Position numbers and translations under genes: made by a program. 64,000 nucleotides of DNA, taken from NCBI GenBank assembly GCA_020849895.1, contig JADZFN010000020.1:18314-82313 (forward strand). The letters are read 5' to 3'. The notes under the pieces were generated by a model. The model searched no databases, was not told where the DNA came from, and saw nothing but the letters and a program-made list of their open reading frames with translations. This DNA is from Verrucomicrobiia bacterium. Its GTDB lineage: Bacteria > Verrucomicrobiota > Verrucomicrobiia > JABWAM01. Positions 9,368 through 25,161 of this stretch are shown here, one piece after another (position 1 is the stretch's first letter; each line of letters begins with the position of its first letter).

Positions 9368-10427
9368 GGAAGGCCCTCCGACGAACCACGCCGATAAGGC
9401 CGATGCCGAGCACGACGAAGACGCTGGCGTTCGGTTCTGGAATCGCGGTGATTTCAAGAACGGCGATTTGCGCGCGAAGCGAAGTCTCCCTGGTGCCCGG
9501 CACATCTGGGCCGACGCTGAACGTTGCGGAGTTGGTGATCTCCACGAGAGAGAGGACATCGTAGTTCACCGCATCGGGACCGTAGCTGAGACCAGTCGGG
9601 TTGGGTGCCCAATGCGCGACATTATTGCTGCTGCTCCCACCAAGGGCGCTCCCGTTGAAGTAGAGGCGGTCGTTCTGGCCGGCGTCTCCGTAGGTGTAGA
9701 CGGCGTGCAGAGTGGCGCTCGTGAGATCTGTGAGGGCCAAGGCGCCCAAGGAGACGGACCATGCATTGGTTTGGCTTCCCGTGGGAGCCCGGTAGATGTC
9801 CGCGCTGCCCTCGGCGATGGCGTACTGGAAGCGGTTGTTCAGACTGGCGGCCTGATACACGGATAGGAGCGAGATCTGGCTGATTCGCCCGTCGAAACTG
9901 TCGGGCGTGGTCACCGTGATGCTTACCGAGTTAGCGCTGCCGTTGGTGTTGAGCCAGGCGGGATTGATGGGCAATCCGATGAGCCAGACGCCCGAGCCGC
10001 TGCCATAGACCGAGGGCGCCATGACGCTGAAGGTTGCGTTGGTATCGCTGGCCTTCCCAAAGGCGAGACCGCCACTGACCAGAGGGTTGCCGTTCACGGT
10101 GACGTCGAGGTTGGCGGTGTAGTTCGAGGTCCCGCCCCACGCCGTGAGGACCAGACGACCGTTCACGATGTCGTCCGCCGAGGGCATGGTGAAACTCGTG
10201 TTGATGGTATAGGGCTGCCCGACGGCCGGATTCGCGCTGTTGGTCCAGGTCGCCTGTGAGCTCATGTAGAGCGCGCCATCGCTCACGGTGCCGCTGATCA
10301 CCGTCTGCAAACCAACGCCGGCGTGGTTATAGGCCGCGAACGCCGCAGGGCCCGCAACGCCAAGGGCGAAGGCGAGGGTGAGTGCAGTCAGTTTTCGGCG
10401 AGGGGCGGACGGAGTGGCGGTTTTCAT
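9360..10427 (-). CDS. PEP-CTERM sorting-domain surface protein (secreted, Ser/Thr/Asn/Gly-rich, C-terminal PEP-TM-RRR). Start reassigned to MKTATPSAPRRKLTALTLAFALGVAGPAAFA.
   Basis: C-terminus ...ITAIPEPNASVFVVLGIGLIGVVRRRAFHA is a canonical PEP-CTERM/exosortase sorting signal. N-terminal signal peptide present. No exosortase gene lies in this window. Confidence 0.75.
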   Translation of the reverse strand: MKTATPSAPRRKLTALTLAFALGVAGPAAFAAYNHAGVGLQTVISGTVSDGALYMSSQATWTNSANPAVGQPYTINTSFTMPSADDIVNGRLVLTAWGGTSNYTANLDVTVNGNPLVSGGLAFGKASDTNATFSVMAPSVYGSGSGVWLIGLPINPAWLNTNGSANSVSITVTTPDSFDGRISQISLLSVYQAASLNNRFQYAIAEGSADIYRAPTGSQTNAWSVSLGALALTDLTSATLHAVYTYGDAGQNDRLYFNGSALGGSSSNNVAHWAPNPTGLSYGPDAVNYDVLSLVEITNSATFSVGPDVPGTRETSLRAQIAVLEITAIPEPNASVFVVLGIGLIGVVRRRAFHA

Positions 10428-10437
10428 AAAGGAAAGA

Positions 10438-11058
10438 TCAGCGGGAGGCGTCCCAGTCGTCCCGTGTGGTCCGAGAGCGAGTCTCCGCGTGGCCGTCGCA
10501 AAACAGGGCACAGAACATTTTGCCGGTGTGGCGGTAGGCGACGTCCACCACGGGTTCGGCGAAGACGCCTCCCCCGCCACAGTAGTACTTCCCGGGGGTG
10601 CAGTCGGCTGCGAAAATTGTGGCTGAAGGCCGCCGCACGTTCTCCGGGCGGACCCCGTACCAGAAGCAGGTGGCGTTCCCCCCAAAGTTGAAGCAATTGA
10701 GCCCGTAGCTCAGGTGGATTTCCGGATCCCAAGCGACGGCCAGACGCTGGGTGTCGGAAGGGCAAAGGAACACCTCGGACTTCTTCGAAATGACGCCTTT
10801 GAGCAGATCCATCCAGCGGGCCTCCGATGAAACCCATGCCGGCGGATAAACCCCGTAATCATTGATGTAGAGCTTCGCGGCGATTCCGATCTGGCAAAGG
10901 TTGGAGGCGCAGGCGGCCTGCTTTCCCCGGGCCCGTGCTCGGGAGAGGGCCGGGAGGAGCATGCCTCCAAGCGCAGCGACGATGGCCAAAGTGACGAGCA
11001 TCTCAACCAGCGAGAAGCCGTGTTGCCTGGAAGGCCGAGTGTAACGACGTGAACGCAT
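10438..11058 (-). CDS. Prepilin-type N-terminal cleavage/methylation domain protein of the DUF1559 family (H-X9-DG C-terminal motif)
   Basis: N-terminus MRSRRYTRPSRQHGFSLVEMLVTLAIVA (type IV pilin-like class III signal). C-terminal ...FCDGHAE (H-X9-DG). This family is hugely expanded in Planctomycetota/Verrucomicrobiota. Confidence 0.8.
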   Translation of the reverse strand: MRSRRYTRPSRQHGFSLVEMLVTLAIVAALGGMLLPALSRARARGKQAACASNLCQIGIAAKLYINDYGVYPPAWVSSEARWMDLLKGVISKKSEVFLCPSDTQRLAVAWDPEIHLSYGLNCFNFGGNATCFWYGVRPENVRRPSATIFAADCTPGKYYCGGGGVFAEPVVDVAYRHTGKMFCALFCDGHAETRSRTTRDDWDASR

Positions 11059-11600: not shown

Positions 11601-11656
11601 AATTTTCCTTTTTAAGATTTTTGCGTATAGTTTGCGTTCCAAACCGATCTGTTTTG

Positions 11657-12943
11657 TTGAATCTTTTTTTTCAAAAATCCTGTCGAAGGATCAGGGACGT
11701 TGTGTGTCTCTGCGCGTTTTTCGCGATCGGCACGCGTGTGTTTGGGCAGTTCGACCCGTCAATTTCCATGACCGGCGTGGAGGCCGCCAACCTCGAGCGG
11801 GACGCACGCCAGCAGGTGGATGACACGCAGGCCACGGTGCGCGTGGGGAAGGTCAACTTCCGCATGGCTGCGGGGCTTCGCCAGGAATATAACGACAACA
11901 TCGGGCTGACGCCGAAGGCGCGGGAGCATGACTTCATCACCACGCCGCACCTCACGCTCGGCGCCCACTGGCCGATCTCCCAACTCAACAGCCTCGATCT
12001 CGTCCTCGGGCTGGCCTACTCCAAGTATTGGGAGCATCCGGCGCTCGACACGACCGGTCTCCTGATCGAGCCGACCTCCATGCTCGATTTCAACGTCTAC
12101 GTGGGCGACGTCCGGATCAACGTGCACGACCGGATCGGGATTCAGCAGGACCCTATTTCCGCGGGTCAGTTGAGCAACATCACGACCTTCCGCCGGCTCA
12201 ACAACACGGCCGGCATCGCCGCCGATTGGGACCTCAACAAGGTGATCCTCACCGGCGGTTACGACTACTCGATCTTTCGCACGCTCGAGGACGGCTACAG
12301 TTATCTGGATCAGGACTCGCACGAGTTTTACGGGCGCATCGGCTACCGCTACGCGCCGCAGCTCACCCTGGGCCTTCAAGGCTCCTACATCATCACGGAT
12401 TACCTGGAGAACGTGCAGAACGACGGCACGACGTGGAGCGCGGGCGTCTACGCGGACACCATTTTCAGCGAATACCTGCGCGGGGGCGCCTCAGTGAGCT
12501 TCCAGGGATCGAGATTCGACAGCAACGGCACGATCGGGGATACGAGTTCGTTCAATTCGGTGGTCTTCACGGCAACGCTCAACAATCAGCTCAACCGGTG
12601 GCTTAACCACTCGCTGACGCTGCGCCGCTTCACCACCTTAGGCATCGGGACGAATTTCACCGAGACCTATCGCGTGGATTATTCGCTGAATGCCGAGGTG
12701 GTCGAACAGGTGACCACCTCGCTGAATTTCTTCCACGAATGGTTCAGGGATTCCTCTTCTGCGGGCACCGGTTATTTGGCGCAAAAGGGAATGCGCTGGG
12801 GCGTGGGGCCGATGATCGGCTACCAAATCACGCCAGCCTCGCGTCTGTCCATCGGCTACCAGCGGACCGAACGCGACGCGAATTACAATCTGTATGACTA
12901 CACGCAAAACGTGGCGTTCATTGATTTCAATCATCAATTCTAG
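11657..12943 (+). CDS. Outer-membrane beta-barrel protein ending in a C-terminal Phe (EpsL-like, polysaccharide-locus associated). The exact start is uncertain: TTG 11621, TTG 11657 and GTG about 11700 are all possible.
   Basis: Alternating amphipathic beta-strand pattern, Tyr/Gly-rich, terminal ...FIDFNHQF*. Signal-peptide-like RRIRDVVCLCAFFAIGTRVFG. The first about 25 codons of the tracked ORF lie in an AT-rich noncoding-looking stretch. Confidence 0.6.
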   Translation: MNLFFQKSCRRIRDVVCLCAFFAIGTRVFGQFDPSISMTGVEAANLERDARQQVDDTQATVRVGKVNFRMAAGLRQEYNDNIGLTPKAREHDFITTPHLTLGAHWPISQLNSLDLVLGLAYSKYWEHPALDTTGLLIEPTSMLDFNVYVGDVRINVHDRIGIQQDPISAGQLSNITTFRRLNNTAGIAADWDLNKVILTGGYDYSIFRTLEDGYSYLDQDSHEFYGRIGYRYAPQLTLGLQGSYIITDYLENVQNDGTTWSAGVYADTIFSEYLRGGASVSFQGSRFDSNGTIGDTSSFNSVVFTATLNNQLNRWLNHSLTLRRFTTLGIGTNFTETYRVDYSLNAEVVEQVTTSLNFFHEWFRDSSSAGTGYLAQKGMRWGVGPMIGYQITPASRLSIGYQRTERDANYNLYDYTQNVAFIDFNHQF

Positions 12944-13636
12944 GTGTTTGTGAAGGCGCATCGTTTTCTCACCGTCCAGGCTTTCTACCTAGGGAGCTTG
13001 CTGCTTGCAGGTTCGTTGTGCGCGGAGGATCCGTCCACGAATGCGCTCGGGGCAAGTCCGATGCGTTCGGCGTCCCCGATCGTCCAACCGGAGACGCACG
13101 TCCTGCAGGTGGGGGACCGCCTCAGCTATCGCGTGGTGGAGGATCGGGAGGACACGCGGCTTCTGCCGGTCACCGCCTCCGGAGAGATCGAAGTCCCTTA
13201 TCTCGGCAAGGTGGTGGTGGCGGGGAAGACAGTTGCCGCCGCCGCTAAGGAGATCAAAACCTTGTTGGAGAAGGATCTCTATTACAAGGCGACCGTGGTG
13301 CTCTCGGTCGAGGAGGTGGCGCCCAAGCCTTTTGAAATGCCGTCCATGGGGCGGCTGAAACAGATTTCGGTGGTCGGACAGGTTCGGTCCCAGGGCGTCC
13401 AGGATATGCCCCGCGACGAAAGATATACGCTCAGCCGGGCGATCATCAAGGCGGGCGGTTTCAGCTCATTTGCCAACGGCCGAAAGGTGCAGGTGGTGCG
13501 GAAAGATGCGGAAGGCAAGACCGTGAAACTCGTGGTTGACATACTCTCCGTTCTCAAAGAAGGAAAAATCGAGAACGATATCGAACTGTTGCCGGACGAC
13601 ATGATCATCGTCCCCGAAAAACTCATCAACTTCTGA
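12944..13636 (+). CDS. Polysaccharide export protein, Wza/KpsD-like (Poly_export + SLBB domain)
   Basis: VQVGDRLSYRVVEDRE...IEVPYLGKVVVAGKT (Poly_export motif) and C-terminal ...IENDIELLPDDMIIVPE (SLBB). 230 aa. The start is 1 bp after the beta-barrel stop. Confidence 0.8.
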   Translation: MFVKAHRFLTVQAFYLGSLLLAGSLCAEDPSTNALGASPMRSASPIVQPETHVLQVGDRLSYRVVEDREDTRLLPVTASGEIEVPYLGKVVVAGKTVAAAAKEIKTLLEKDLYYKATVVLSVEEVAPKPFEMPSMGRLKQISVVGQVRSQGVQDMPRDERYTLSRAIIKAGGFSSFANGRKVQVVRKDAEGKTVKLVVDILSVLKEGKIENDIELLPDDMIIVPEKLINF

Positions 13637-13643
13637 TGCGGCC

Positions 13644-15866
13644 ATGGCTCCGCCCGCGCAAAACGATCCTGTGGCGCCGCCGCCGCCGCCACTCAGTACG
13701 AACGTCATTGATCGGATCAACTTCGCGATCCAATTCGAGAAGTATCGGGACATCATCCTCAAGCGCTGGTGGCTGATCGCGGTGTGCGTGGTCGGGACCC
13801 TCCTTTACGGGGCTTACAAGGCCTACCGCCAGCCGGACATTTACAAGGCGGCGGGGAGCATGATGGTGCGTCCGCGGGTGAATGTCGCTGTCAATGACGT
13901 GGTGAACGAGGAGTTGAGCAACTTTTACGGCACGCAGGTGCAGCTCATGCAGAGCCGCGCCGTGATCGAGTCGGCGCGGCGCAAGCTGGCGGATTTCGAG
14001 AAGTCCCTCACTCTCGATCCGTCGCCCTCCCTTCAGGTCTTCCAGGTCCGCAACACCTCGATCTTCAGCCTTTCGGTGACGAGCACTTCGGCGGAGTTCG
14101 CCAAGCGTTTCCTCGACCAGGTGATGCGCGAATACATCGCCTCCAAGAAGAAATCCCACGACGAGGTGACGGAGAACGTCGCCTCGAACATTCTGCGCGA
14201 AGTGGAGCGCCTCGACGCGGAGCGGCGCAAGACGGAGAAAGAGCTTTTCGATTTCCAGAAAAAATACAACGTGGCGTATTTCGAGGGGCAGGGGAATTTT
14301 TCGACGCAGTATCTCGTGGACCTCAAGCGGCAGCTCGCGGAAAAGACCACCGAGCTCGAACTGCTCGATGCGGAAACCGCCGAGCAACGGCTGAGCCGCC
14401 TCGCGGCGCCCGGCGCGGCCGAGAGCGCCCGCGCGGCGGAGGGAGGCACCAACCATTCTCCGGACAACATCAACCTGCCGAGCGGCGTGAAGACCGCCGA
14501 GAACAGCAGCAATCTCCGCGGCACCCTCGCCCTTCTCGAAAGCGAGCGCGCCGATCTGAGCAAGGTCCTCAAGCCGAAGCATCCCAAAATCCAGCGCCTC
14601 GACGAGGAGATCAAGCGCAAGCAGCAACTCCTCGACATCGCCCTCAAACAGACCCGGGAACAGATCGCCGCCTACCGCCAGTCGCTCGTCAAACAGAAGG
14701 AGGCCCTCCAGAAAAGCATTGCCGACGCCGAGAAGCAGGCGCTCGAGGCGAACCAGAAGGCCGCCGAATACGGCCAGCTCAAGTCGAACGTCGCCCGCAC
14801 CACCGAGCTTTACGACGTGCTCCTGAAGCAGCTCCAGACCATTGACACTGCAGGCGGCATGGAGCAGGAGCTGATCCAGATCCATGAACCGGCCACGGTC
14901 GGCGGCGCGCCCGTCGGTCCGAACCGCTCGCGCCAACTCCTCATGTCGGGCCTCTTCGGCCTCGGCATCGCCGCGCTCATCATCTTCCTCCTCGAGCGTT
15001 TCGACGACCGCGTGAAGACCGTCGAGGAGCTCCAGGATCTCGTGCCGGAGACCGTTCTTGGGCAGATCCCCTTGATCGCGGGCCGCAAGGACGACTCCGG
15101 GCCGCTCCTCATGGCGAACCTGCCGGAGCACAACAATTTCTCCGAGTCATTCCGCAACGTCCGCTCCTCGCTCATGTTCTCCCCGCTCGGCGGGCAGGCC
15201 AAGACGATCGCCGTGACCAGCGCCATCCCGAACGACGGCAAGACCACCTGCTCCGTCAACCTCGCCTGCTGCCTCGCGCAGGTTGAAGGCGGACGCACCC
15301 TGCTCATTGACGCCGACATGCGGAAGATGAACGTTCATCATTTTTTCGAGATGGAGAACGGAAACGGCCTCTCGGAAGCGCTCAGCGGCCAGGCCAGTCT
15401 CGATTCCTGCGTGATCGAGACGCGCATTCCAAACCTGCATCTCCTGCGCGCGGGGAACGCCCCGCCGAATCCCGGCGAGCTGCTCCTCAGCGAGAACTTC
15501 CGCCAGCTCCTGACGCAGATGTCTCAGTATTATCACCGGATCGTGATTGACACGCCGCCCGTACTGGCCACCGACGACACCCTCTCGATGGCGCCTTCGC
15601 TCGACGGGCTGATTTTTGTGGTGAAGGCGAATCAGACCTCCCTGCGGTTCGTGAACCGCTCCATGCATTTGTTGAAGCAGCGCGGAGCCAAGATCTTCGG
15701 TCTCGTGCTCAATCAGATTGATACCACATCCGCTCACTACTACTACTACTACTACTACTCGACGTACTACTACGGGCGGGATGCGCGGAGAAAAGGCGGA
15801 TCGCGCGCGGCCGGCGAGGCCGTCGCGGCGCCGGCACCGCCGGAGACCCCCGCTCCGACGGTCTGA
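13644..15866 (+). CDS. Polysaccharide co-polymerase/tyrosine autokinase (Wzc/ExoP/GumC-like PCP-2a). N-terminal Wzz chain-length domain with long coiled coils, plus C-terminal BY-kinase domain and Tyr cluster.
   Basis: Two TM segments flank a roughly 400-aa coiled-coil periplasmic region. The kinase domain has Walker A AIPNDGKTT and Walker B LLIDAD. C-terminal ...SAHYYYYYYYSTYYYGRD. 740 aa. Confidence 0.85.
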   Translation: MAPPAQNDPVAPPPPPLSTNVIDRINFAIQFEKYRDIILKRWWLIAVCVVGTLLYGAYKAYRQPDIYKAAGSMMVRPRVNVAVNDVVNEELSNFYGTQVQLMQSRAVIESARRKLADFEKSLTLDPSPSLQVFQVRNTSIFSLSVTSTSAEFAKRFLDQVMREYIASKKKSHDEVTENVASNILREVERLDAERRKTEKELFDFQKKYNVAYFEGQGNFSTQYLVDLKRQLAEKTTELELLDAETAEQRLSRLAAPGAAESARAAEGGTNHSPDNINLPSGVKTAENSSNLRGTLALLESERADLSKVLKPKHPKIQRLDEEIKRKQQLLDIALKQTREQIAAYRQSLVKQKEALQKSIADAEKQALEANQKAAEYGQLKSNVARTTELYDVLLKQLQTIDTAGGMEQELIQIHEPATVGGAPVGPNRSRQLLMSGLFGLGIAALIIFLLERFDDRVKTVEELQDLVPETVLGQIPLIAGRKDDSGPLLMANLPEHNNFSESFRNVRSSLMFSPLGGQAKTIAVTSAIPNDGKTTCSVNLACCLAQVEGGRTLLIDADMRKMNVHHFFEMENGNGLSEALSGQASLDSCVIETRIPNLHLLRAGNAPPNPGELLLSENFRQLLTQMSQYYHRIVIDTPPVLATDDTLSMAPSLDGLIFVVKANQTSLRFVNRSMHLLKQRGAKIFGLVLNQIDTTSAHYYYYYYYSTYYYGRDARRKGGSRAAGEAVAAPAPPETPAPTV
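15738..15773 (+). repeat. In-frame trinucleotide microsatellite (TAC)7-TCG-ACG-(TAC)3 encoding the C-terminal tyrosine cluster of the BY-kinase
   Basis: Read directly: cac tac x7 tcg acg tac x3. All Tyr codons are the same triplet. Confidence 0.9.
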
Positions 15867-15883
15867 GACGCTCCGATTTCGCC

Positions 15884-16738
15884 ATGCGATCTTCATCGGC
15901 GCTGTCCGAGACCGTGGTCTCCGCGGATGTTCGTGTTCGCTTCCTCCAGTATCTCCGGGATCTGTGGCACTACCGCGACCTCTTCCGCGCGCTCATCGAG
16001 CGCGACGTGAAGGTCCGTTACAAGCAGACGGCGCTCGGCGTGATGTGGGTGATCCTCCAGCCCCTGTTCATGGCGGGGGCGTTTTCCCTCATCTTCGGAC
16101 GAGTGGTCCAGATGCCCAGCGCGGGGCTTCCCTATTCGATCTTTTACCTTGCTGCCCTGATTCCGTGGACATGTTTCTCCAACGGCCTTTCCCAGGCGGC
16201 CGGCAGCATGGAGGGCAGCGCCGGGCTCATCAGCAAAGTATATTTTCCGCGTCTCATCGTTCCCTCGGCGATGGTTCTAGGCACCGTGGTGGATTTCGCC
16301 ATCGGCTGGCTCTTGTTCAACGGCCTGGCTATTTATCGAGGATTCTGGACCTGGTGGTTCATCCCCTTCACACCGGTCCTGCTGGTGCTGCAGCTCTTCG
16401 CAGCGATGGGGATCGGGTTGGTGCTTGCCGCGCTCAACGCCCAGTATCGCGACGTCCGTTACGTGACCCCCTTCCTTCTCCAGGCCGGCATGCTCTGCAC
16501 GCCGGTCATCTATCCGCTCGAGCGCCTCCTCAGCACGCGCTTTACCGAGCAACTCGGCGTGCTGATCTATCTGAATCCGATGGCGGGCGTGATCGAAACT
16601 TATCGCGCCCTTTGCTTCTCCGCTTCCTACGTTCCGTGGAAGCTTCTTGCGGGAAACAGTGTCACGACCGCCGCGCTTCTCGCCTTCGGAATCTGGTTCT
16701 TCCGCCGCCGCGAACAGGCCATTGTGGACCTCCTATGA
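15884..16738 (+). CDS. ABC-2 type polysaccharide/O-antigen exporter permease (Wzm/KpsM/TagG family)
   Basis: 284 aa, 6 TM helices, ABC-2 signature region (…YIPWKLLAGNS…). Immediately precedes a Wzt-like ATPase. Confidence 0.85.
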   Translation: MRSSSALSETVVSADVRVRFLQYLRDLWHYRDLFRALIERDVKVRYKQTALGVMWVILQPLFMAGAFSLIFGRVVQMPSAGLPYSIFYLAALIPWTCFSNGLSQAAGSMEGSAGLISKVYFPRLIVPSAMVLGTVVDFAIGWLLFNGLAIYRGFWTWWFIPFTPVLLVLQLFAAMGIGLVLAALNAQYRDVRYVTPFLLQAGMLCTPVIYPLERLLSTRFTEQLGVLIYLNPMAGVIETYRALCFSASYVPWKLLAGNSVTTAALLAFGIWFFRRREQAIVDLL

Positions 16739-16832
16739 GGATCGCCGATCACCGATTGCCGATCGCCGATGGCGCTGGAAAGCGCGCTTCGCATCCCGTG
16801 GGCCGCCCCTCGCCCTCCGCCTGTTGTCTTTC

Positions 16833-18104
16833 ATGAGCTGGGCCATCCGCATCGAAAACGTGGGCAAAACGTTCCGCCGGGGCGAGCGCGGGCCGATCAG
16901 CCGCAATTTCCGAGAATCCCTCCAGCGTCAGGCCGGCAAATGGATCCGCGCGGTGAATCCCGCCTCGTGGGTCCATTCTCGCAACGAAGAAGAGAGGATG
17001 TTCTGGGCGCTCCGCGAGGTGAGCGCCGAGATTGCCGAGGGAGAGATCGTAGCGATCATCGGTCCCAACGGCGCCGGCAAGTCCACTCTCTTGAAAATCC
17101 TTTCCCGCATCACGCCGCCGGCCGCCGGCGTCATCCGTTACCGAGGCCGCCTCGCCTCGCTTCTCGAGGTGGGCACCGGCTTCCACCGCGAGCTTACCGG
17201 CCGGGAGAACATCTATCTCAACGGCTCCATCCTCGGCATGACGCGCCGAGAAATTACCGGCAAGCTCGACGAGATCGTCGAGTTCTCCGGCGTCGGCAAG
17301 TTTCTCGACACGCCCGTAAAGTTCTATTCGAGCGGCATGTATGTGCGTCTCGCGTTCGCCGTGGCCGCACATCTCGAGACCGACATCCTCCTCGTGGACG
17401 AGGTGCTCGCCGTGGGCGACGCGGAGTTCCAGAAGCGCTGCACACGACGGATGAGCGACGTCGCGAAGGACGGACGCACCGTGCTCCTCGTCAGTCACAA
17501 CATGGGCGTCGTCCAGACCAATTGCGCCCGGGGCATCCTCCTCCGCGAGGGGCGGATCGTCCACGACGGCCCCGTCCAGGACGTGGTACGCGACTATCTT
17601 GCCTCGTTGAGCCCCGTCGGCGCCGGCCTCGACATCTCGGAGGCGCATCCACGCGCCGGTTCGGGCGCCTTTCGTGTGAGAGGCGTGCGCTTCTCCGACG
17701 CGAAAGGCGACCTCGCTCAGCTCGTGTGCGGCCAGGCCGGGCGCATCCGCCTCGAGATCGAGGCGAAGGAGAGCGCCCTGCCGATTCGCGACGCCAACAT
17801 CGCGCTCACCCTCTACACCATGGACGGCTTCCGCCTCTGCAACCTCTGGAGCCGGGCCAGCGGAGGCTCCTTCCGCATCGACCGGACGTGCGTCATCTGC
17901 GAGGTGGAACTGCCACGCGTACCGTTTCGAGCCGGCGAGTATCGTCTTGAGATTTTTGCGGACGGTGGAGGCGAGGTCTGCGACTGGATCGAAAACGCCG
18001 GCAGCATGGAGATCGCCGAAGGCGATTTTTACGGTACGGGGATAACCACCCATTCCGATCAGGGGCCGTTTTTCTGCGAGCACCGCTGGAGAACAATCTC
18101 CTAA
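16833..18104 (+). CDS. ABC polysaccharide/O-antigen exporter ATP-binding protein (Wzt/KpsT/TagH family) with an extra C-terminal domain of roughly 180 aa (Wzt_C-like). Start reassigned to ATG 16833 (MSWAIRIENVGKTF).
   Basis: Walker A GPNGAGKST, signature YSSGMYVRLAF, Walker B LLVDEVLAVGD. The tracked ORF start at 16647 overlaps the permease, while the internal ATG gives a canonical NBD N-terminus. The C-terminal extension (...RVRGVRFSDAKGDLAQ...RLEIFADGGGEV...) resembles Wzt carbohydrate-binding domains. Confidence 0.8.
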   Translation: MSWAIRIENVGKTFRRGERGPISRNFRESLQRQAGKWIRAVNPASWVHSRNEEERMFWALREVSAEIAEGEIVAIIGPNGAGKSTLLKILSRITPPAAGVIRYRGRLASLLEVGTGFHRELTGRENIYLNGSILGMTRREITGKLDEIVEFSGVGKFLDTPVKFYSSGMYVRLAFAVAAHLETDILLVDEVLAVGDAEFQKRCTRRMSDVAKDGRTVLLVSHNMGVVQTNCARGILLREGRIVHDGPVQDVVRDYLASLSPVGAGLDISEAHPRAGSGAFRVRGVRFSDAKGDLAQLVCGQAGRIRLEIEAKESALPIRDANIALTLYTMDGFRLCNLWSRASGGSFRIDRTCVICEVELPRVPFRAGEYRLEIFADGGGEVCDWIENAGSMEIAEGDFYGTGITTHSDQGPFFCEHRWRTIS

Positions 18105-18119
18105 TCCGAGCCCGCGTCC

Positions 18120-18818
18120 ATGCCGGTCAGCAACCCTTATCAGCTTCCCTTCGTGCTGGACGCCGCCGCACGGAGTGCGCCGGCGCGCGTGCTCGATGTC
18201 GGCATCGGCCTCGGCCTCGTCGGCGCTGCTCTACGCCAGTATCTCGAAGTCTGCGCCGGACGCCTCGAACGCCACGAGTGGCGCTGCCGGATCGAGGGGA
18301 TCGAGATCCATCCGCCCTACCGGACGCCTCTCTGGGATTGGGCCTACGATGCCGTGCATCTCGGGGATGCCCGGGAAATTCTGCCGCGACTCGGCAAGTT
18401 CGATCTCCTCCTCGCCTGCGACGTGATCGAGCACTTCCCGAAAGAGGAGGGGCGGGCGTTTCTCGAGACCTGCCTGACCGCTGCCCGTTTTGTCATCGTG
18501 ACGTCGCCGGTCGGACGTTACGAGCAGGGGACCGTATTCGGGAACCCGCACGAGGCGCACCTGAGCGAATGGAGCCGCAAGGATTTTCGCATCTGGCCGA
18601 ACCACTACGTCGAGGCGCGAGGCACGTTCATGGCGACGCTCGCGCGGGAACGCGGCGACCTCCTCCGCCTCGGCTTGCGGACGTTGCCGCGCCTGAACCG
18701 ATCCGCCTCCCAGGCCGCGCGCGACTTCGCCGCTGCGGCGGGGCTCGGCCCGTTCGCCCGCCGCGCGCGCCGCGCCCTCCTCGCGTGCGCGGGGCGGAGA
18801 CGCGCGGCACCCCCATGA
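18120..18818 (+). CDS. Class I SAM-dependent methyltransferase
   Basis: VLDVGIGLG (motif I) ... LLACDVIEHFP (motif II/III region). 232 aa. Confidence 0.7.
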   Translation: MPVSNPYQLPFVLDAAARSAPARVLDVGIGLGLVGAALRQYLEVCAGRLERHEWRCRIEGIEIHPPYRTPLWDWAYDAVHLGDAREILPRLGKFDLLLACDVIEHFPKEEGRAFLETCLTAARFVIVTSPVGRYEQGTVFGNPHEAHLSEWSRKDFRIWPNHYVEARGTFMATLARERGDLLRLGLRTLPRLNRSASQAARDFAAAAGLGPFARRARRALLACAGRRRAAPP

Positions 18819-20017
18819 AGCCGTTTCGGATCGGCTTGCTCACACATTCGTTCCACCGCCGCTCCGCCGCGGGGCTTCGGTGCTGGCACCTTGGACGCGC
18901 CCTCGCGCGCGAAGGCGCGGACCTGCGCGTCTATTGCACGGAGGGCGAGACGCCCTCGGACCTTGGCGAGGCATCCTGCGCGGTGCGTGAAATCGGCGTC
19001 GTTCCCCGAGGTTTTGCCGACCGTGCGGACACGCTGGCTCGAGTGCTCCACGCGCGGTTCGGCTGGACGCCGCCGCTGGTCGTCACCTTTCACGCCAAGC
19101 TGCGACGGCGTGCGCCGATTCTCCGCGCGGCGTTCGACGCGGTCCGGCGCGCAGAGGAGAGACGCCCGCACGATTTTCTGCTCGCCGTCTGGCCGGACTT
19201 CGAGTGGGCGGACGCGGCGCGGAGCGTCGCGCGCGTGTATCGGATGCCTTTCGCAGTGGAGTTTCAGGACCCCTGGATGCACTTCTATCCGCCGGGTGTG
19301 CGCCCGCATGCGCTCGGCGCGTTGCGGCGCGTTCTCGACGGCGCGGCCTTTACGCTCAACGTGTGCGAGGCGTGGTGTGCGAGAGACACCCGCGACTTCG
19401 GCCTGCGTTCCGTCTGCATCCCGACCGGTTTTTGGGAGCGTCCGCGTCCCTCCCGCGACGGAGACCCCCGGCGCTCCCTCCGCCTCGCCTACGCCGGCTC
19501 CCTCTGGTACTTCGACCTCGCCCCGCTGGTGAAAGGATTGCGTCTCGCCCGGGACGCGGGCGTGGACTGGCGCTTCGCGTATGCCGGAGACGATGAGGCG
19601 CTCGTGCGCGGCGCCTTCGAGGCCGAAGGGATCGCCGACCAGCTCGAGACGCGCGGACGGGTGACGCCCGAGGACGCCCTCGATGCCATCTCCGCCGCCG
19701 ACGCTCTCCCGCTGTTCACGTTGCCCTCCAAGCCCTCCACATTCGGTTTCAAGTTCGCCGAAGTGGTGTCGCGCGGTCTGCCGGTGCTGCTCATCGGGCC
19801 GGACGATCCCGTGCTCCGCGAGGCGATCGCCGCGCGCGCGCGCCTGCACGCGTGTCCGGACGCGGCTGCAGTCGCCGCGGCGCTGGCCGAGCTGGCGCGC
19901 GCGCGCCCGATCCGGCCGCAACCGCATCCTTCCGTGGCCGAATGGACCTGGCCGGCGCTCGCGCGACGGCTGCTGGGAGAAATGCGGGTGGCCGCCTTCG
20001 ACCGGAAAAAGGCGTGA
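18815..20017 (+). CDS. Glycosyltransferase (GT-B fold, GT4-like). Start reassigned to ATG 18815 (MKPFRIGLLTHSF...), which overlaps the upstream stop (ATGA).
   Basis: The N-terminal MKPFRIGLLTHSFHRRSAAGL is a typical GT4 N-terminus. A C-terminal ...PSKPSTFGFKFAEVVSRGLPVLL EX7E-like region is present. The tracked ORF start at 18278 lies inside the preceding gene. Confidence 0.65.
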   Translation: MKPFRIGLLTHSFHRRSAAGLRCWHLGRALAREGADLRVYCTEGETPSDLGEASCAVREIGVVPRGFADRADTLARVLHARFGWTPPLVVTFHAKLRRRAPILRAAFDAVRRAEERRPHDFLLAVWPDFEWADAARSVARVYRMPFAVEFQDPWMHFYPPGVRPHALGALRRVLDGAAFTLNVCEAWCARDTRDFGLRSVCIPTGFWERPRPSRDGDPRRSLRLAYAGSLWYFDLAPLVKGLRLARDAGVDWRFAYAGDDEALVRGAFEAEGIADQLETRGRVTPEDALDAISAADALPLFTLPSKPSTFGFKFAEVVSRGLPVLLIGPDDPVLREAIAARARLHACPDAAAVAAALAELARARPIRPQPHPSVAEWTWPALARRLLGEMRVAAFDRKKA

Positions 20018-20856
20018 GCACGCTTTCGGTCATCATCCCGGCCTACAACGCCGCGCCATTCCTGGCGCAGGCGGTCCTCAGCCTCGTCGCCCAGCGTCGC
20101 CGGCCGGACGAGGTGGTGATCGTGAACGACGCGAGCACCGACGGGACGCGGCGGGTACTGGAACGGCTGCGGCGGAAGACGAAGCAATTCGCGATCATCG
20201 CCGCCGAGAACGCGGAGAACCTCGGCGGCGGCGCGACGCGCAATCGCGCGGTCGCCCTCGCGAAGGGCGACTATCTGTTTTGCCTCGATGCGGACAACCT
20301 TCTGCTTCCCGACACACTGCACCTCTTTCTGGAGCGCGCGGAACAGGCGCGCGCGATGGAGGGACGGCCCGCCGTGATCTGTTCCGAGGCGCTGCAGTTC
20401 TTCCGGGACCGGTTCCTCGTGCCCCGCCTGAATTGGGTTCGGATCGGCAAACGGCTCGGCGAACGGTGGGAGTTTTTCAACCTTTCGCGCACCGCCATCC
20501 TGACGAACCCGGTCTCGCCAGCCTCGAGCGGCAACTACCTCTACCATCGCGAAATCTTCGAACGATCGGGCGGCTACGCGGAGGACTGTGGCGCTTACGA
20601 CGCCTGGGTCTTCGGCGTCCGCAATTGCCTTGCGGGATATCCTTTCCTGGCCGTGCCCGGGGTCAGCTACCTTCATCGTCTGCATCCGCGAAGCTACTGG
20701 GAGCAGGACATCCTGAAGGACAACCGCCGCGATCATATGATGAGAGCTTTCGGCAATTTCCGCCACGTTTACACCGAGGAGACGTTTGACTACCTTCAGG
20801 CGGTGAGGCGGATCGGCAGACTCGATTGGTCGAGGCTCAAGCTTCGCGTCTCCTGA
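20014..20856 (+). CDS. Glycosyltransferase family 2. The GTG start at 20014 overlaps the upstream stop (GTGA).
   Basis: VSTLSVIIPAYNAAPFLAQAVLSLVAQ...VIVNDASTDGT (GT2 DXD-containing Rossmann N-terminus), then ...CLDADN. Confidence 0.8.
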   Translation: MSTLSVIIPAYNAAPFLAQAVLSLVAQRRRPDEVVIVNDASTDGTRRVLERLRRKTKQFAIIAAENAENLGGGATRNRAVALAKGDYLFCLDADNLLLPDTLHLFLERAEQARAMEGRPAVICSEALQFFRDRFLVPRLNWVRIGKRLGERWEFFNLSRTAILTNPVSPASSGNYLYHREIFERSGGYAEDCGAYDAWVFGVRNCLAGYPFLAVPGVSYLHRLHPRSYWEQDILKDNRRDHMMRAFGNFRHVYTEETFDYLQAVRRIGRLDWSRLKLRVS

Positions 20857-20869
20857 AACCGTCCATTCC

Positions 20870-21532
20870 TTGGAAACCTCGCCTCAGATTCCCCGCGGCG
20901 CGCGCCTCCACCTCGGCTGTGGAGGACAGCCCCTGCCGGGTTACGTCAACATTGACACGCAACCGTCGGACCGCCAACCGCGACCCAAGGCCGACATATT
21001 CACGGATTTTACCCGACTCTCTCTCTCCGCGGGCCACGTCTCCGAGATCCGCCTCCACCACGTCTTCGAACATTTCCGGAAGGGAGAGGCCGCGGCGCTG
21101 CTCGCGCGGTTCAACGAGTGGCTCCAGCCCGACGGCGCCCTTTGTGTCGAGGTGCCGGATTTCGGCGACACGTCCCTCTATTATCTCCTTACCGGCGACC
21201 TTCGCGCCATCCGTCATCTCGCGGGGTCTCAGGAGGCCTCGTGGGCCACGCACCATGAGCTGTGGGATGCGCGCCAGCTCCGTCGCGCACTTGATCTTTT
21301 CGGTTTCGGGCGCATCGCGTTGCGGCGGAACCGCGCGTGGTTCCGGCGGTCGCGGCGGAAATGGTGGTGCAACCTCACCGCTCTGGCACGCAAGGAGCGC
21401 TCTCTCGAGCCGGAGGAGGCGCGTCGGGCCGCCGAGGCGTTCTTCGAGCCGTACCTCGTCAATCGCGAGATCGAGCTTTCCGCCTGGCTCGGACACTTCG
21501 ACGCGATGATGGGGCGAGGACGCGGACCGTGA
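20870..21532 (+). CDS. Class I SAM-dependent methyltransferase (Methyltransf_11-like). TTG start.
   Basis: LHLGCGGQPLPGYVNID (motif I) ... LCVEVPD. 220 aa. Confidence 0.65.
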   Translation: METSPQIPRGARLHLGCGGQPLPGYVNIDTQPSDRQPRPKADIFTDFTRLSLSAGHVSEIRLHHVFEHFRKGEAAALLARFNEWLQPDGALCVEVPDFGDTSLYYLLTGDLRAIRHLAGSQEASWATHHELWDARQLRRALDLFGFGRIALRRNRAWFRRSRRKWWCNLTALARKERSLEPEEARRAAEAFFEPYLVNREIELSAWLGHFDAMMGRGRGP

Positions 21533-22716
21533 GAGTCCTGCTCTGCTCGTTCAGCCGGCCGTTCCCGCAGAGCGACGGTCCATGGCCTCTCTGGACGCCC
21601 CCCTTCCGCGAAGGCCTTGAGGCCTGCGGATGCGAAGTGGTCGAGCCGAAGACGGTGGATCTCATCGAGCCGTTTTTGCGCCGCGCGGACACGGACTGGA
21701 TCCTCCGGAATCGTTCTGCGCTCGCGGGCCGGCTCCTCGACGAGGTCCGTCGCCTTCACCGGGAGAAGCCTCTCGATCTCATCTTCACCTACTTCTGGGA
21801 GTTCCAGGTGGATGCCGCGGGGATGCGCGCGATCACCGACCTCGGGATCCCCACGGTGAATTTCTTCTGCGACAACGTGCGCGAGTTTTCGAGCGTCGAA
21901 CCGCTGGTGCGCAGCTTCACCCTCAACTGGGTTCCCGAAGTCGGCGCGCTGCCTCTCTACCGGCGGGCCGGAGCCCCGCACGTCCATCTCCCGATGTCCG
22001 CTTCGCCCTCGCGGTTCCCCTTCGAGGAACGGCCCGAGAAACGGCGCGTGGTCTTCATCGGCTCCGCCGATGTGGTGCGCCGCCATCTGCTCGACCAGGT
22101 GCGCGACCGCCTGCCGCTCCGCGTCGGAGGAGAGGGATGGGCGCCCGCGGCGACGGGCGAGGGCGCGCCCTCCGGCGCGCCGCGGCGTTCCTTCGCCGAT
22201 CTTGCCGGGACCCTTGCGAGCCACGCAGCCAGGGTCCTGCGTCACGGGCCGCGTGCGGAATGGAACCATTTCGAGCAGAAGCGCGTGGAGCTCCGTCTGG
22301 CCGGCCGCTTCGCCGATCTCGCCCTCGACACGCGCAAGTCCTCTGCGATGCTCGAGGCCTTCTGGGACAGCGCGGTGACTCTCGGCATCAACCGTTTCCC
22401 CACGCCCGAGGCGCCTCTCGAACGACCACGCTGCTACTCGCGGCTGCGCGACCTCGAGGCCCCCATGGCGGGCGCAGCCTACCTCACCGAGCGGACGGAG
22501 GACCTTCCGCATCTGTTCGAGGAGGGGAAAGAAGTGCTCGCGTATCGGACCGCCGACGAACTCGTCGCGCAGGCGGAACGCATGCTGGAAGATCCCGCGC
22601 TCCGTCGTCGCTTGCGGCGGGAAGGCCGCCGCCGCGCCCTCGCAGAACACACCTGGGAACGGCGCTTCCGCGACCTCTTCCGCCATCTCGGCCTGAAACC
22701 TCCCCGCGTTCCGTGA
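21529..22716 (+). CDS. Glycosyltransferase family 1 / CgeB-like (DUF3880 + Glyco_trans_1_2). The GTG start at 21529 overlaps the upstream stop (GTGA).
   Basis: Central ...RRVVFIGSAD... and C-terminal ...EVLAYRTADELVAQAERMLEDPALRRRLRREGRRRALAEHTWERRFRDLF, characteristic of the CgeB/GT1 C-terminus. Confidence 0.6.
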   Translation: MRVLLCSFSRPFPQSDGPWPLWTPPFREGLEACGCEVVEPKTVDLIEPFLRRADTDWILRNRSALAGRLLDEVRRLHREKPLDLIFTYFWEFQVDAAGMRAITDLGIPTVNFFCDNVREFSSVEPLVRSFTLNWVPEVGALPLYRRAGAPHVHLPMSASPSRFPFEERPEKRRVVFIGSADVVRRHLLDQVRDRLPLRVGGEGWAPAATGEGAPSGAPRRSFADLAGTLASHAARVLRHGPRAEWNHFEQKRVELRLAGRFADLALDTRKSSAMLEAFWDSAVTLGINRFPTPEAPLERPRCYSRLRDLEAPMAGAAYLTERTEDLPHLFEEGKEVLAYRTADELVAQAERMLEDPALRRRLRREGRRRALAEHTWERRFRDLFRHLGLKPPRVP

Positions 22717-23675
22717 AACATCTCCGTCACGCCATCGTCGCTGCGGCTTGGGCCGTTTCCCGGGCGTTCCTTCGCGTCCTGCCTGCGCGCGCGTTGCGGG
22801 CGTTCCTCACCGAGTGCGCGCGAAATCCCGACGCGGCGGACCGTGCGGGGTTTCATGTCCGCCGCGCCGGATTCAGCGAACCGCTGCCGGATTTCACCGC
22901 GCTCGAGGCGCGAGACTTCGAGAGCCCGCGTTGGGCGCATGGATTGGACTGGAGGGACGCGACGCAAGAAGCCCTTCTGCGGAAACTGGCGAAGCGCGTC
23001 GAGGAACTCGACGCGCTCGAAACCGAGGCCGCGCCCTTCCGCTTCGACAATGGGTTCTACGGTGGCGCCGATGCCGCGGCGTTCTTCCTCCTCCTGCGCG
23101 ATCTGAAGCCCCGCCGCCTTGTCGAGGTGGGTTCGGGGTTCTCGACGCGCGTGGCGCAAGCCGCCCTTCGTCGCAATGCGCGCGAGGGCGCGCCGGCCGA
23201 GGAGCATGTCTGTCTCGAACCCTTTCCGAACGAACGCACGGCCGGACTCTCTGAGGGCGTTCGCTTTCTGAGAAGCGCCGCCGAAGACGCGCCCGAGGAG
23301 CTTTTCCTCGGTTTGCGGGGCGGAGACGTGCTCTTTGTAGATTCCTCGCATACGGTTCGTCCTTTCGGAGACGTCCCGCGCCTCGTCCTCGATCTTCTGC
23401 CTCGCCTGCATCCCGGGGTATGGGTCCATTTTCACGACATCTTTCTTCCATGGGATTACCCGAGAACGTGGGTGGTGCGGGAGCGACGCATCTGGACGGA
23501 GCAATATCTGCTCGAAGCCTTCCTTTCCGAAAACCCGAACTTGGAAATCGTGCTGGCGATGTACCGTCTCCATCGAGCGGCCGATATGCCGCTGCGCGCC
23601 CTTGGATTCCGTGACGGGATCGGCCATCCTCCCTGCGCCTTCTGGATGAGGCGCCGCGAAACCGCAACCTCATGA
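22713..23675 (+). CDS. Class I SAM-dependent methyltransferase of the TylF/MycF/CmcI-like group (Methyltransf_24). The GTG start at 22713 overlaps the upstream stop (GTGA).
   Basis: ...LVEVGSGFST... , ...DVLFVDSSHTVRPFGDVPRLVLDLLPRLHPGVWVHFHDIFLPWDYP (the macrocin-O-methyltransferase-like metal-binding region). Confidence 0.65.
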   Translation: MKHLRHAIVAAAWAVSRAFLRVLPARALRAFLTECARNPDAADRAGFHVRRAGFSEPLPDFTALEARDFESPRWAHGLDWRDATQEALLRKLAKRVEELDALETEAAPFRFDNGFYGGADAAAFFLLLRDLKPRRLVEVGSGFSTRVAQAALRRNAREGAPAEEHVCLEPFPNERTAGLSEGVRFLRSAAEDAPEELFLGLRGGDVLFVDSSHTVRPFGDVPRLVLDLLPRLHPGVWVHFHDIFLPWDYPRTWVVRERRIWTEQYLLEAFLSENPNLEIVLAMYRLHRAADMPLRALGFRDGIGHPPCAFWMRRRETATS

Positions 23676-24505
23676 CCCTGTCCTCGGTCCCGAGGCGTCT
23701 CGCCCTCGCCCTGCTCCCGCGCCGCCTCTGGTTTGCGCTCCGCGGCGTCCACCGCGCGTGGACCGGGAGGCTGTCCGGGATCTGGCACCGTCGCCTTCTC
23801 GCGCGCCTCGGAGGAACGGTGCAAAGCGGTCCCTTTCGCGGAATGCGCTACGTGGAGGAGTCGGTGGGGAGTTCGTTTCTCCCGAAGCTTCTCGGCACTT
23901 ACGAGCTCGAACTGCATCCCGCCCTCGAGAAGCTGCGCGTGAACGATTTCGACCTCGTCGTGGACGTCGGCGCGGCGGAGGGTTGGTATGCCGTGGGAGC
24001 GACGCTCCTGTGGCCGAGCGCGCGCGTGATCGCTTTCGAGACCCACGCCGTGGGCCGCCTCCTCTGCGCCGAGCTCGCGTCGCGCAACGGCGCGAAAAGA
24101 CGCGTCGAGATCCATGGTTTCGCTGACCTTCTCTCGTTCCGCGCCATCCTCAATGGCGCGGCGGCGGAGCGGACGCTGGTGATCATGGACGTCGAGGGCG
24201 CGGAAATCGTCCTGCTCGATCCCGTGGCGGCGCCCGAGCTTTCCCACACCGCGATCCTCGTGGAGTGCCACGACGAGAAGGGGAACCCGGTTGCCGCGAC
24301 CTTGCGTTCCCGCTTCGCCGCCTCTCACGAGGTGGAAACCGTCCCGAGCCGGGCGAGGAGCGTCGGGGACTTTCCCCTTCCGGATCGGCCGCCGCTCGGG
24401 TGGGCTGTGCCGCTGCTCACCGCGATGGCGGAGCATCGCCCCCGCCGGATGGAATGGCTCGTGATGCTTCCTCGCGCCGGGGCCGCGGAGAGGAGGAGCC
24501 CATGA
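23672..24505 (+). CDS. FkbM-family methyltransferase. The ATG overlaps the upstream stop (ATGA).
   Basis: ...VVDVGAAEGWYAVGA...RVIAFE...VIMDVEGAEIVLL... matches the FkbM domain pattern. Confidence 0.7.
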   Translation: MTLSSVPRRLALALLPRRLWFALRGVHRAWTGRLSGIWHRRLLARLGGTVQSGPFRGMRYVEESVGSSFLPKLLGTYELELHPALEKLRVNDFDLVVDVGAAEGWYAVGATLLWPSARVIAFETHAVGRLLCAELASRNGAKRRVEIHGFADLLSFRAILNGAAAERTLVIMDVEGAEIVLLDPVAAPELSHTAILVECHDEKGNPVAATLRSRFAASHEVETVPSRARSVGDFPLPDRPPLGWAVPLLTAMAEHRPRRMEWLVMLPRAGAAERRSP

Positions 24506-25161
24506 GCCGGCTCGGGCGGCTGCTGTGGGGGAAGATCACCCCGCGGCGCGTCCTGCTGCGGCTGGTGGAGGCGACGAACGCCCGCCTCGGGCGGCGCGCC
24601 CAAGGGAGGCTCTACTTCGAAGATCTCTACCGCGAACGCGACCCATGGAACTACGAAGAGAGCGCCTACGAGCAGGTCAAATACGCGAAGACGCTGGAAC
24701 TGCTGCCCCAGCCGCGTTTCCAGCGCGCCCTCGAAGTGGGATGCAGCATCGGGGTCTTCACACACCAGCTCGCCGCGAAGGCGGACGAGGTGATCGCCCT
24801 CGACATTTCGGCGCGCGCCTGCCGCCGGGCGCGGATGCGTTGCGCCGACCAGCCTCAGGTGCATATTCGCCGCGGCGACCTCGTCCACTTCGTGGACGCA
24901 GCCGGCTTCGACCTCATCCTCTGCGCGGAGATGCTTTACTATCTCTGGGATCGTCCGCGCGAGCGCGCGATCGTCGGCTCTCGACTCGGCGCACTCCTGC
25001 GCCCGGGCGGTTGGCTCGCACTCGTTTTCGGCGGGAGCGGCGTAGGACAGGACTGGGAAGGCGAACTCGAACGGCGCGCTGGATTGGTCCGCCACGAAAC
25101 CCGCTTCTTCGACGACCCCGTTCGCTCTTGGCGCTTCTCCCTCCTCCGCAAACCGGGTTGA
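24502..25161 (+). CDS. Class I SAM-dependent methyltransferase (NodS/Methyltransf_23-like). ATG 24502 follows the AGGAGGAG SD and overlaps the upstream stop (ATGA).
   Basis: ...ALEVGCSIGVFTHQLA...VIALDIS...FDLILCAEMLYYL... The tracked ORF start at 24265 lies inside the preceding gene. Confidence 0.7.
   Translation: MSRLGRLLWGKITPRRVLLRLVEATNARLGRRAQGRLYFEDLYRERDPWNYEESAYEQVKYAKTLELLPQPRFQRALEVGCSIGVFTHQLAAKADEVIALDISARACRRARMRCADQPQVHIRRGDLVHFVDAAGFDLILCAEMLYYLWDRPRERAIVGSRLGALLRPGGWLALVFGGSGVGQDWEGELERRAGLVRHETRFFDDPVRSWRFSLLRKPG

Follow-up and report, generated by a model that had tools for sequence, protein, structure and literature searches.

The C-terminal carbohydrate-binding domain (CBD) of Wzt, the ATPase of the WzmWzt ATP-binding cassette (ABC) transporter, binds a 3-O-methyl-mannose/rhamnose cap in Aquifex aeolicus. 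The methyl pocket of this domain consists of L300, T346, A348 and W362, with W362 stacking on the methyl group, and the sugar is gripped by H350 and a trap loop (PMC9445017). In the Klebsiella systems the terminator always resides on a coiled-coil protein (PMC11231755), and in the common polysaccharide antigen (CPA) system of Pseudomonas aeruginosa a double mutant of the small methyltransferases PA5457 and PA5459 makes no polymer (PMC3560663). We analyzed a 64,000-nucleotide stretch of a Verrucomicrobiia bacterium (assembly GCA_020849895.1, contig JADZFN010000020.1, positions 18,314 to 82,313; hereafter the window, whose own positions are used throughout) that encodes a 423-aa Wzt with an extra C-terminal domain next to a row of methyltransferase genes. 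An earlier note on this DNA had proposed that the domain recognizes a methyl cap and so couples chain termination to export. We conclude, with a probability of roughly 0.55, that the operon containing wzt codes for an ABC-transporter-dependent pathway whose product is a methylated polysaccharide, surface or extracellular, and in which a methyl cap gates export.

Wzt and its C-terminal domain

The wzt open reading frame (ORF) was intact (16833-18104, + strand, 423 aa), and its ATG at 16833 was consistent with the N-termini of homologues. An identical protein was present in a Verrucomicrobiae metagenome-assembled genome. The nucleotide-binding domain (NBD) occupied residues 1-258 (16833-17606, + strand; ABC_tran PF00005, E 2e-19). 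Across 106 homologues the Walker A, signature (YSSGM), Walker B and H-loop motifs of the NBD were invariant, and residues G77-T85, Y165-M169, D189-E190 and S221-H222 were invariant or near-invariant. The best sequence match of the protein in the Protein Data Bank (PDB) was Aquifex WzmWzt (8DKU, E 2e-64). The AlphaFold (AF2) monomer model of the full-length protein had a predicted local distance difference test score (pLDDT) of 88.7, and its best structural match was full-length Aquifex Wzt/WzmWzt.

The remainder of the protein, residues ~265-423 (17625-18104, + strand), ended in the conserved tail motif GDFYGTG and was assigned as a CBD by Pfam, a sequence profile, AF2 modeling and Foldseek. 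Pfam Wzt_C (PF14524) matched residues 274-397 (E 4.6e-7, 30.4 bits), in agreement with the division into an NBD and an additional C-terminal domain that had been read from the sequence before. The AF2 monomer model of residues 255-423 was an all-beta sandwich with a pLDDT of 92.6. When this model was compared with the PDB by Foldseek, the top 17 matches were all Wzt CBDs, led by that of E. coli O9a (2R5O; E 3.4e-9, TM 0.70) and including those of Aquifex (6O14/8DKY) and Raoultella (5HNO/5HNP); the first non-CBD fold was NPC2 (E 5e-5), four orders of magnitude worse. The best structural matches were not to an unrelated fold, so the carbohydrate-binding beta-sandwich foreseen by the earlier note, with 2R5O as its reference, stands.

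A CBD sequence profile built from 48 homologous C-terminal domains and searched against the PDB matched Aquifex 8DKY/6O14 (E 2e-12) and Raoultella 5HNO (E 2e-4), but gave no match to 2R5O. The domain was highly divergent in sequence, with only one 50%-identity cluster at E <= 1e-30. Near-invariant positions among the 106 homologues were R274, G276, G300, Y370, D384 and the GDFYGTG tail. We regard it as almost certain that Wzt carries a genuine CBD, and as likely that this domain reads a terminal cap. Many representatives of the CBD-only matches (P0152-P0299) were just 150-290 aa long; these may be metagenome gene fragments or stand-alone CBD proteins.

A Wzt with a cap-reading domain beside methyltransferases is a textbook mechanism, and thousands of homologues share this architecture. 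The Wzt feature that the earlier note had flagged is thus of a well-known kind, and the part that may be of specialist interest is the export context in which it occurs.

Operon structure and the downstream methyltransferases

Coding frames were set from a plot of position-specific GC content (GC at the third codon position, GC3) and by inspection of start codons. The frame plot was needed because the window, at 65% G+C, has many long spurious ORFs overlapping real genes. The wzt gene was found to belong to an operon of 13 genes on the + strand (11621-25161), bounded at its 3' end by a convergent lysA. The order was BBP2_2 barrel, outer membrane polysaccharide export protein (OPX), Wzc-like polysaccharide co-polymerase (PCP), Wzm, Wzt, methyltransferase MT1, a glycosyltransferase family 4 (GT4)-like enzyme, a GT2 enzyme, MT2, a Glyco_trans_1_2 enzyme, MT3, MT4 and MT5. 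Most junctions within the operon were 4-nt overlaps or gaps of at most 18 nt, the exception being the 95-nt gap between wzm and wzt. The PCP gene and wzm were separated by 18 nt, and downstream of wzt eight genes were translationally coupled through 4-nt overlaps.

Directly after wzt lay MT1 (18120-18818, +), a small class I S-adenosylmethionine (SAM) methyltransferase with the motif VLDVGIGLG and a sub-cut-off match to Methyltransf_23 (E 2.7e-4). It also matched Hen1 2'-O-methyltransferase weakly, and PF13489 was matched by some of its homologues. It was followed by the GT4-like (GT-B) glycosyltransferase (18815-20017, +; Glyco_trans_1_4, E 2.2e-6), the GT2 glycosyltransferase (20014-20856, +; Glycos_transf_2, E 7.8e-31) and MT2, a class I methyltransferase (20870-21532, +; Methyltransf_23, E 3.2e-7, 30.7 bits against a cut-off of 27). 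The operon continued with a GT-B-like Glyco_trans_1_2 glycosyltransferase (21529-22716, +; PF13524, E 3.1e-23), the 320-aa MT3 (22713-23675, +), in which a Methyltransf_24 domain (PF13578, E 2.6e-14) was preceded by a 136-aa N-terminal extension, and MT4 (23672-24505, +), which carried the motif VDVGAAEG and was weakly FkbM-like (TIGR01444 fkbM_fam, E 1.3e-6, 28.9 bits against a cut-off of 37.7). The last gene, MT5 (24502-25161, +), was NodS-like (Pfam NodS, E 2e-22; PDB 3OFJ NodS, E 2e-17).

Methyltransferases thus follow wzt as the earlier note had said, but frame plot, Pfam and NCBIfam gave five of them, interleaved with three glycosyltransferases, rather than six in immediate succession. 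Three of the five were above Pfam cut-offs and two were weak; SAM motif I was present in all. A 681-aa ORF at 21630-23675, considered as a possible WbdD-like multidomain terminator, was rejected since the GC3 frame plot showed it to be a wrong-frame reading of two genes.

The five methyltransferases were further checked for features of WbdD. A PDB sequence search (E <= 1 for four of them, E <= 0.01 for MT5) matched none of them to WbdD entries, and MT2, MT3 and MT4 had no relevant PDB sequence matches. No coiled-coil segment longer than ~35 aa was found in these 219-320 aa proteins with a crude scan for heptads and stretches free of proline and glycine, which returned several long segments for the PCP as positive control. 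The absence of an obvious coiled-coil ruler noted previously was borne out, and extends to the lack of a WbdD match and of a kinase.

MT1 is a candidate terminator. Its orthologue also directly follows wzt in two related genomes (L001/L002), and its family is tiny, with ~30 members in a set of 5.8 billion proteins. A 51%-identical relative was encoded at L089 (8001-8735), in a Wzm-Wzt_C cluster with three further methyltransferases. Of the other MT1 homologue contexts, one was an actinobacterial-like glycan cluster and one was unrelated, a mixed picture that is suggestive rather than conclusive. MT5 was not conserved in L001/L002. In L001 (14074-15558) the MT2 orthologue was fused to an N-terminal FkbM-type methyltransferase domain, which weakly (sub-threshold) resembled Vibrio cholerae RfbT, an enzyme methylating the terminal O-antigen sugar.

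The export module upstream of wzt

The four genes upstream of wzt encode the transporter permease and three predicted components of an export machine. Wzm (15884-16738, +) was an ABC-2 permease (ABC2_membrane, E 5.8e-13) with 86% identical orthologues in L001/L002. The first operon gene (11621-12943, +; start codon uncertain) encoded a predicted Wzp/EpsL-like outer membrane beta-barrel (BBP2_2, E 1.5e-10) with a weak match to TIGR03016, a PEP-CTERM-associated outer membrane protein family, and a C-terminal phenylalanine (...NHQF). Orthologues of the barrel were in the same position in L001-L003. The second gene (12944-13636, +) encoded a short periplasmic OPX of 230 aa (Poly_export, E 5e-12, and one SLBB domain) ending in ...LINF and likewise conserved in L001-L003. 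Its length is within the 280-aa limit of class 3 (D1D2 type), to which it belongs by its Poly_export and SLBB domains and by the lack of the Wza_C helix that would span the outer membrane.

The third gene (13644-15866, +) encoded a Wzc-like PCP-2a of 740 aa with a C-terminal bacterial tyrosine kinase (BY-kinase) domain (TIGR01007, 186 bits against a cut-off of 108; Wzc PRK11519, E 2e-48). Its Wzz and GNVR matches were weak. An unusually dense cluster of tyrosines, AHYYYYYYYSTYYYG, was present at its C-terminus (~15732-15776, +). From the TIGR01007 score and this tyrosine-rich tail the protein looks functional, and the cluster points to an active BY-kinase.

We searched the window for the genes of the alternative export routes by ORF family scans. 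No Wzx, Wzy, WaaL, KpsS/KpsC or initiating phosphoglycosyltransferase was detected in the 64 kb; the search for the initiating enzyme, WaaL, Wzx and Wzy turned up only MraY, in the dcw cluster. The Polysacc_synt and Wzy_C families were matched nowhere in the window, and none of the operon proteins had eight or more transmembrane (TM) segments. A group 2 capsule system was rejected, as neither KpsS/KpsC nor a PCP-3 was found and the PCP has a BY-kinase domain. A PEP-CTERM/XrtA exopolysaccharide system is not claimed either: TIGR03016, TIGR03007 and TIGR03018 scored well below their cut-offs, and exosortase was absent from the window ORFs scanned.

Conservation and spread of the export module

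The order barrel-OPX-PCP-Wzm-Wzt was kept in three related Verrucomicrobia metagenome-assembled genomes (MAGs; L001-L003), with Wzt identities of 72-83%. The methyltransferase and glycosyltransferase genes were orthologous in two of the three. In L003 (4711-12333) the export cassette was kept and the first gene after wzt was an unrelated GT2, which suggests that, as in capsule loci, the export module is conserved and the biosynthetic region attached to it varies.

We also surveyed, with iterative hidden Markov models on six-frame ORFs, 81 diverse CBD-Wzt loci drawn from 185,579 scanned species genomes. A PCP with a BY-kinase lay within 10 kb at ~17 of 80 diverse loci and an OPX at 12 of 80. 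The order OPX-PCP/BY-kinase-Wzm-Wzt was present at ~13 of 80 (~15%), usually on one strand. Pfam bore out the OPX-PCP-Wzm-Wzt arrangement in two cultured Flavobacteriia, Pustulibacterium marinum and Flavobacterium aquatile, as well as in a Rhizobium MAG. In P. marinum CGMCC 1.12333 (L081, 5260-11281) and F. aquatile LMG 4008 (L050, 4172-11254) the genes for a short OPX, PCP-2a, Wzm and Wzt_C were consecutive. TM counting, which was checked against the major facilitator superfamily (MFS) and FecCD proteins of the window, showed about half of the loci with this arrangement to lack a large polytopic membrane protein within 10 kb.

The earlier note had held that a Wzc-type neighbor sits oddly beside a cap-reading Wzt. 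That view was not upheld, as the pairing is conserved in related Verrucomicrobia and recurs in diverse loci. Similar pairings had also been counted before: among short OPX/barrel pairs, which are an established kind of translocon, Schwabe et al. assigned 14 of 453 to ABC pathways, with Wzt_C as one marker (PMC9601211). The arrangement is common in environmental bacteria and, although counted in that survey, has never been characterized.

Proposed pathway

We propose the following route for the polymer. Three glycosyltransferases would assemble a glycan on a polyprenol carrier at the cytoplasmic side of the inner membrane, and up to five SAM-dependent methyltransferases would methylate it. One or more of these methylations, or a terminal sugar that bears a methyl group, would stop elongation at the non-reducing end and form the epitope for the Wzt CBD. 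The next step is modeled on E. coli O8/O9a, Klebsiella O12 and Aquifex: only capped chains would be loaded into the Wzm/Wzt channel and cross the inner membrane. In the periplasm the chain would be handed over to the Wzc-like PCP, the short OPX and the beta-barrel porin, with release at the cell surface. No WbdD-type ruler would be involved: the balance between capping and elongation in the cytoplasm would determine chain length, and the role of the Wzc-like protein would be to gate export, not polymerization.

Tight gene spacing, gene order kept in three related MAGs, recurrence in diverse loci and the absence of Wzx/Wzy argue for a single pathway, and departure of the polymer through the PCP, OPX and barrel seems somewhat more likely than not. 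We hold more tentatively, at somewhat less than even odds, the full proposal that a cap-reading Wzm/Wzt feeds a Wzc-type PCP, OPX and barrel without Wzx/Wzy, with methyl capping setting the length and the kinase regulating only export, that this route is widespread in Verrucomicrobiota, Bacteroidota and Proteobacteria, and that the polymer in this bacterium is unusually heavily methylated. The model does not explain what would be regulated by the tyrosine kinase when there is no periplasmic polymerization.

If the proposal is true, a Wzc-type tyrosine-kinase co-polymerase would work without Wzy, and its export-gating role could be separated from its disputed role in polymerization. The cultured Flavobacteriia carrying an OPX-PCP-Wzm-Wzt_C cassette make such an experiment feasible. 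Given the five methyltransferases and three glycosyltransferases, the polymer of this uncultured Verrucomicrobium would be unusual among glycans in its hydrophobicity.

Nature of the cap and alternative readings

Apart from glycosyltransferases, the modifying enzymes of the operon were all methyltransferases (Pfam, NCBIfam), and no kinase or Kdo (3-deoxy-D-manno-octulosonic acid) transferase family was found by the same databases among the eight proteins downstream of wzt. In the profile alignment, W362 of Aquifex, which stacks on the methyl group, aligned with W385 of Wzt in a conserved DW motif (D384 in 101 and W385 in 70 of the 106 homologues). A methyl cap is the most economical solution because no non-glycosyl modifying enzymes other than methyltransferases are encoded in the operon, one of them directly follows wzt, and the solved CBD nearest in sequence is methyl-specific. 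We put a methyl-based cap at slightly better than even odds.

Several observations weigh against a methyl cap or against the pathway built on it. The Pfam Wzt_C score was exactly at the gathering cut-off. The rest of the binding pocket differed from that of Aquifex, whose T346, A348 and H350 aligned with E373, F375 and D377, and the trap loop was four residues shorter. A methyltransferase lay nearby at 15 of 23 loci with a Trp at position 385 (65%) and at 25 of 58 loci without it (43%), a weak and non-significant association (odds ratio 2.5, p = 0.088). No methyltransferase was detected within 10 kb at 43 of 87 CBD-Wzt loci. The CBD of L003 was 69% identical, yet a GT2 and not MT1 followed wzt there (the contig ends at this point). 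Five methyltransferases per three glycosyltransferases are more than a cap needs; five such genes were found in just 2 of the 87 loci, namely the window and its closest relative, while most had none or one. Because of this surplus most of the five probably act on internal residues, so that most methyl groups would be internal decorations. For P. aeruginosa CPA, the authors tentatively gave the length-setting step to a glycosyltransferase and not to the methyltransferases (PMC3560663). Finally, the model gives no route for release of the lipid-linked chain to the PCP-2a and OPX. The hypothesis of the earlier note that chains are terminated by methyl capping is supported in part and stays a hypothesis: the CBD is real, W385 is kept and a methyltransferase follows wzt, while the pocket differs, the Trp association is at p = 0.09 and half of the loci have no methyltransferase.

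The CBD might instead read a non-methyl cap, such as a special terminal sugar that one of the glycosyltransferases attaches, with the methyltransferases decorating the interior of a heavily methylated, hydrophobic polysaccharide. The surplus of methyltransferases, the loci where none is detectable and the glycosyltransferase step proposed for P. aeruginosa all fit this explanation, and Kdo-type sugar caps are known (PMC11231755; 5HNO). However, the operon contains no Kdo or dedicated cap-sugar pathway and no kinase, only three glycosyltransferases are available, and the position directly after wzt is conserved as that of a methyltransferase gene; the solved CBD with the closest sequence is specific for methyl groups, and the Trp that stacks on the methyl group is kept. 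We regard a non-methyl cap as rather unlikely. A further possibility is that the C-terminal domain is a structural or dimerization remnant that gates no ligand, with cap-independent export as in Klebsiella O2a. The threshold Pfam score and the high divergence of the domain would suit a remnant. Against this, the confidence of the modeled fold was very high and thousands of Wzt proteins share it, the near-invariant residues listed above include the GDFYGTG tail, and the CBD was essential for export in every tested system (PMC9445017, PMC11231755), which makes a remnant very improbable.

The operon could also hold two adjacent systems, in which Wzm/Wzt with the glycosyltransferases and methyltransferases makes an O-antigen ligated by an unlinked WaaL, and the barrel, OPX and Wzc-like protein export another, Wzy-dependent polymer encoded elsewhere. 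A Wzc-type PCP-2a is normally paired with Wzx/Wzy, its textbook partners. Wzy_C-domain proteins were found at locus L006, and about half of the other loci of the same arrangement do have a large polytopic membrane protein within 10 kb. Moreover, the characterized CBD-bearing Wzt proteins all serve O-antigens or S-layer glycans (PMC9445017, PMC11231755). What speaks for one system is the single operon with only 18 nt between the PCP gene and wzm, a gene order kept at 72-83% identity and recurring in distant phyla, and the lack of Wzx, Wzy and WaaL in the operon or the 64-kb window; the published survey likewise places some short OPX/barrel pairs in ABC pathways by the Wzt_C marker (PMC9601211). 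Two separate systems appear improbable, less so than a remnant domain, and we retain the single ABC-transporter-dependent pathway for a methylated polysaccharide as the preferred reading.

Other genes in the window

The remaining window held housekeeping genes, including those for SecA, birA, coaX, an H+-pyrophosphatase and a complete dcw cluster. Two overlapping ORFs (9360-11058, - strand) lay upstream of the polysaccharide operon in divergent orientation; one coded for a DUF3344 protein with a PEP-CTERM sorting signal, the other for a prepilin-type N-methylation/DUF1559 protein. The H+-pyrophosphatase gene (35520-37967, -) had a GC3 of 0.92, a codon bias stronger than that of any other large ORF scanned; only a 173-aa antisense ORF within the same gene had a higher value. 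This codon bias suggests very high expression. Within the dcw cluster, a LysM-domain protein was encoded between murD and ftsW (54157-55002, +), and a 784-aa fusion (57290-59644, +) combined an N-terminal MurC with Mur ligase domains and a C-terminal MurB (FAD_binding_4 and MurB_C).

Comparison with known systems

The group 2 capsule system (KpsMT-KpsE-KpsD) resembles the pathway proposed here in coupling an ABC transporter to a PCP and an OPX for surface export. However, its KpsT has no CBD, its PCP-3 has no kinase, and it requires KpsS/KpsC and a Kdo linker, none of which occurs here. The composite translocons of Myxococcus (EpsY/EpsX and WzaB/WzpB; PMC9601211, PMC9603273, PMC12819527) likewise have a short OPX, an adjacent barrel (a predicted one at this locus) and a BY-kinase PCP with long helical periplasmic segments. 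The characterized examples are Wzx/Wzy-dependent, whereas here a CBD-bearing Wzm/Wzt would perform the inner-membrane step. In addition, the barrel here is of the BBP2_2/PEP-CTERM-associated type, and the OPX ends in a single Phe in contrast to the Phe-Phe of WzaB.

The Wzm-Wzt-WbdD system of E. coli O8/O9a (Klebsiella O5/O3) has the same wzm-wzt-methyltransferase order, and its CBD (2R5O) was the best structural match. The concept would be the same, with capping both ending elongation and licensing export, but the WbdD kinase and coiled-coil ruler and the polymannose polymerase WbdA have no counterpart here. Aquifex aeolicus WzmWzt (7K2T, 8DKU, 6O14, 8DKY) has the same two-domain Wzt and was the best PDB match over both domains. 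Its CBD was only ~18% identical to the one described here, which has the GDFYGTG tail in addition. Aquifex exports a lipopolysaccharide O-antigen, whereas the transporter of this locus shares its operon with a PCP-2a, an OPX and a beta-barrel.

The P. aeruginosa CPA system has two methyltransferases compared with five here, and CPA is ligated to lipid A-core. It is nevertheless the closest functional precedent, because this locus has no WbdD-like ruler and the CPA methyltransferases are also free of the extra domains of WbdD, unlike the Klebsiella systems with their coiled-coil terminator. Both loci have small stand-alone methyltransferases without membrane-binding or ruler domains, encoded together with glycosyltransferases beside Wzm/Wzt.

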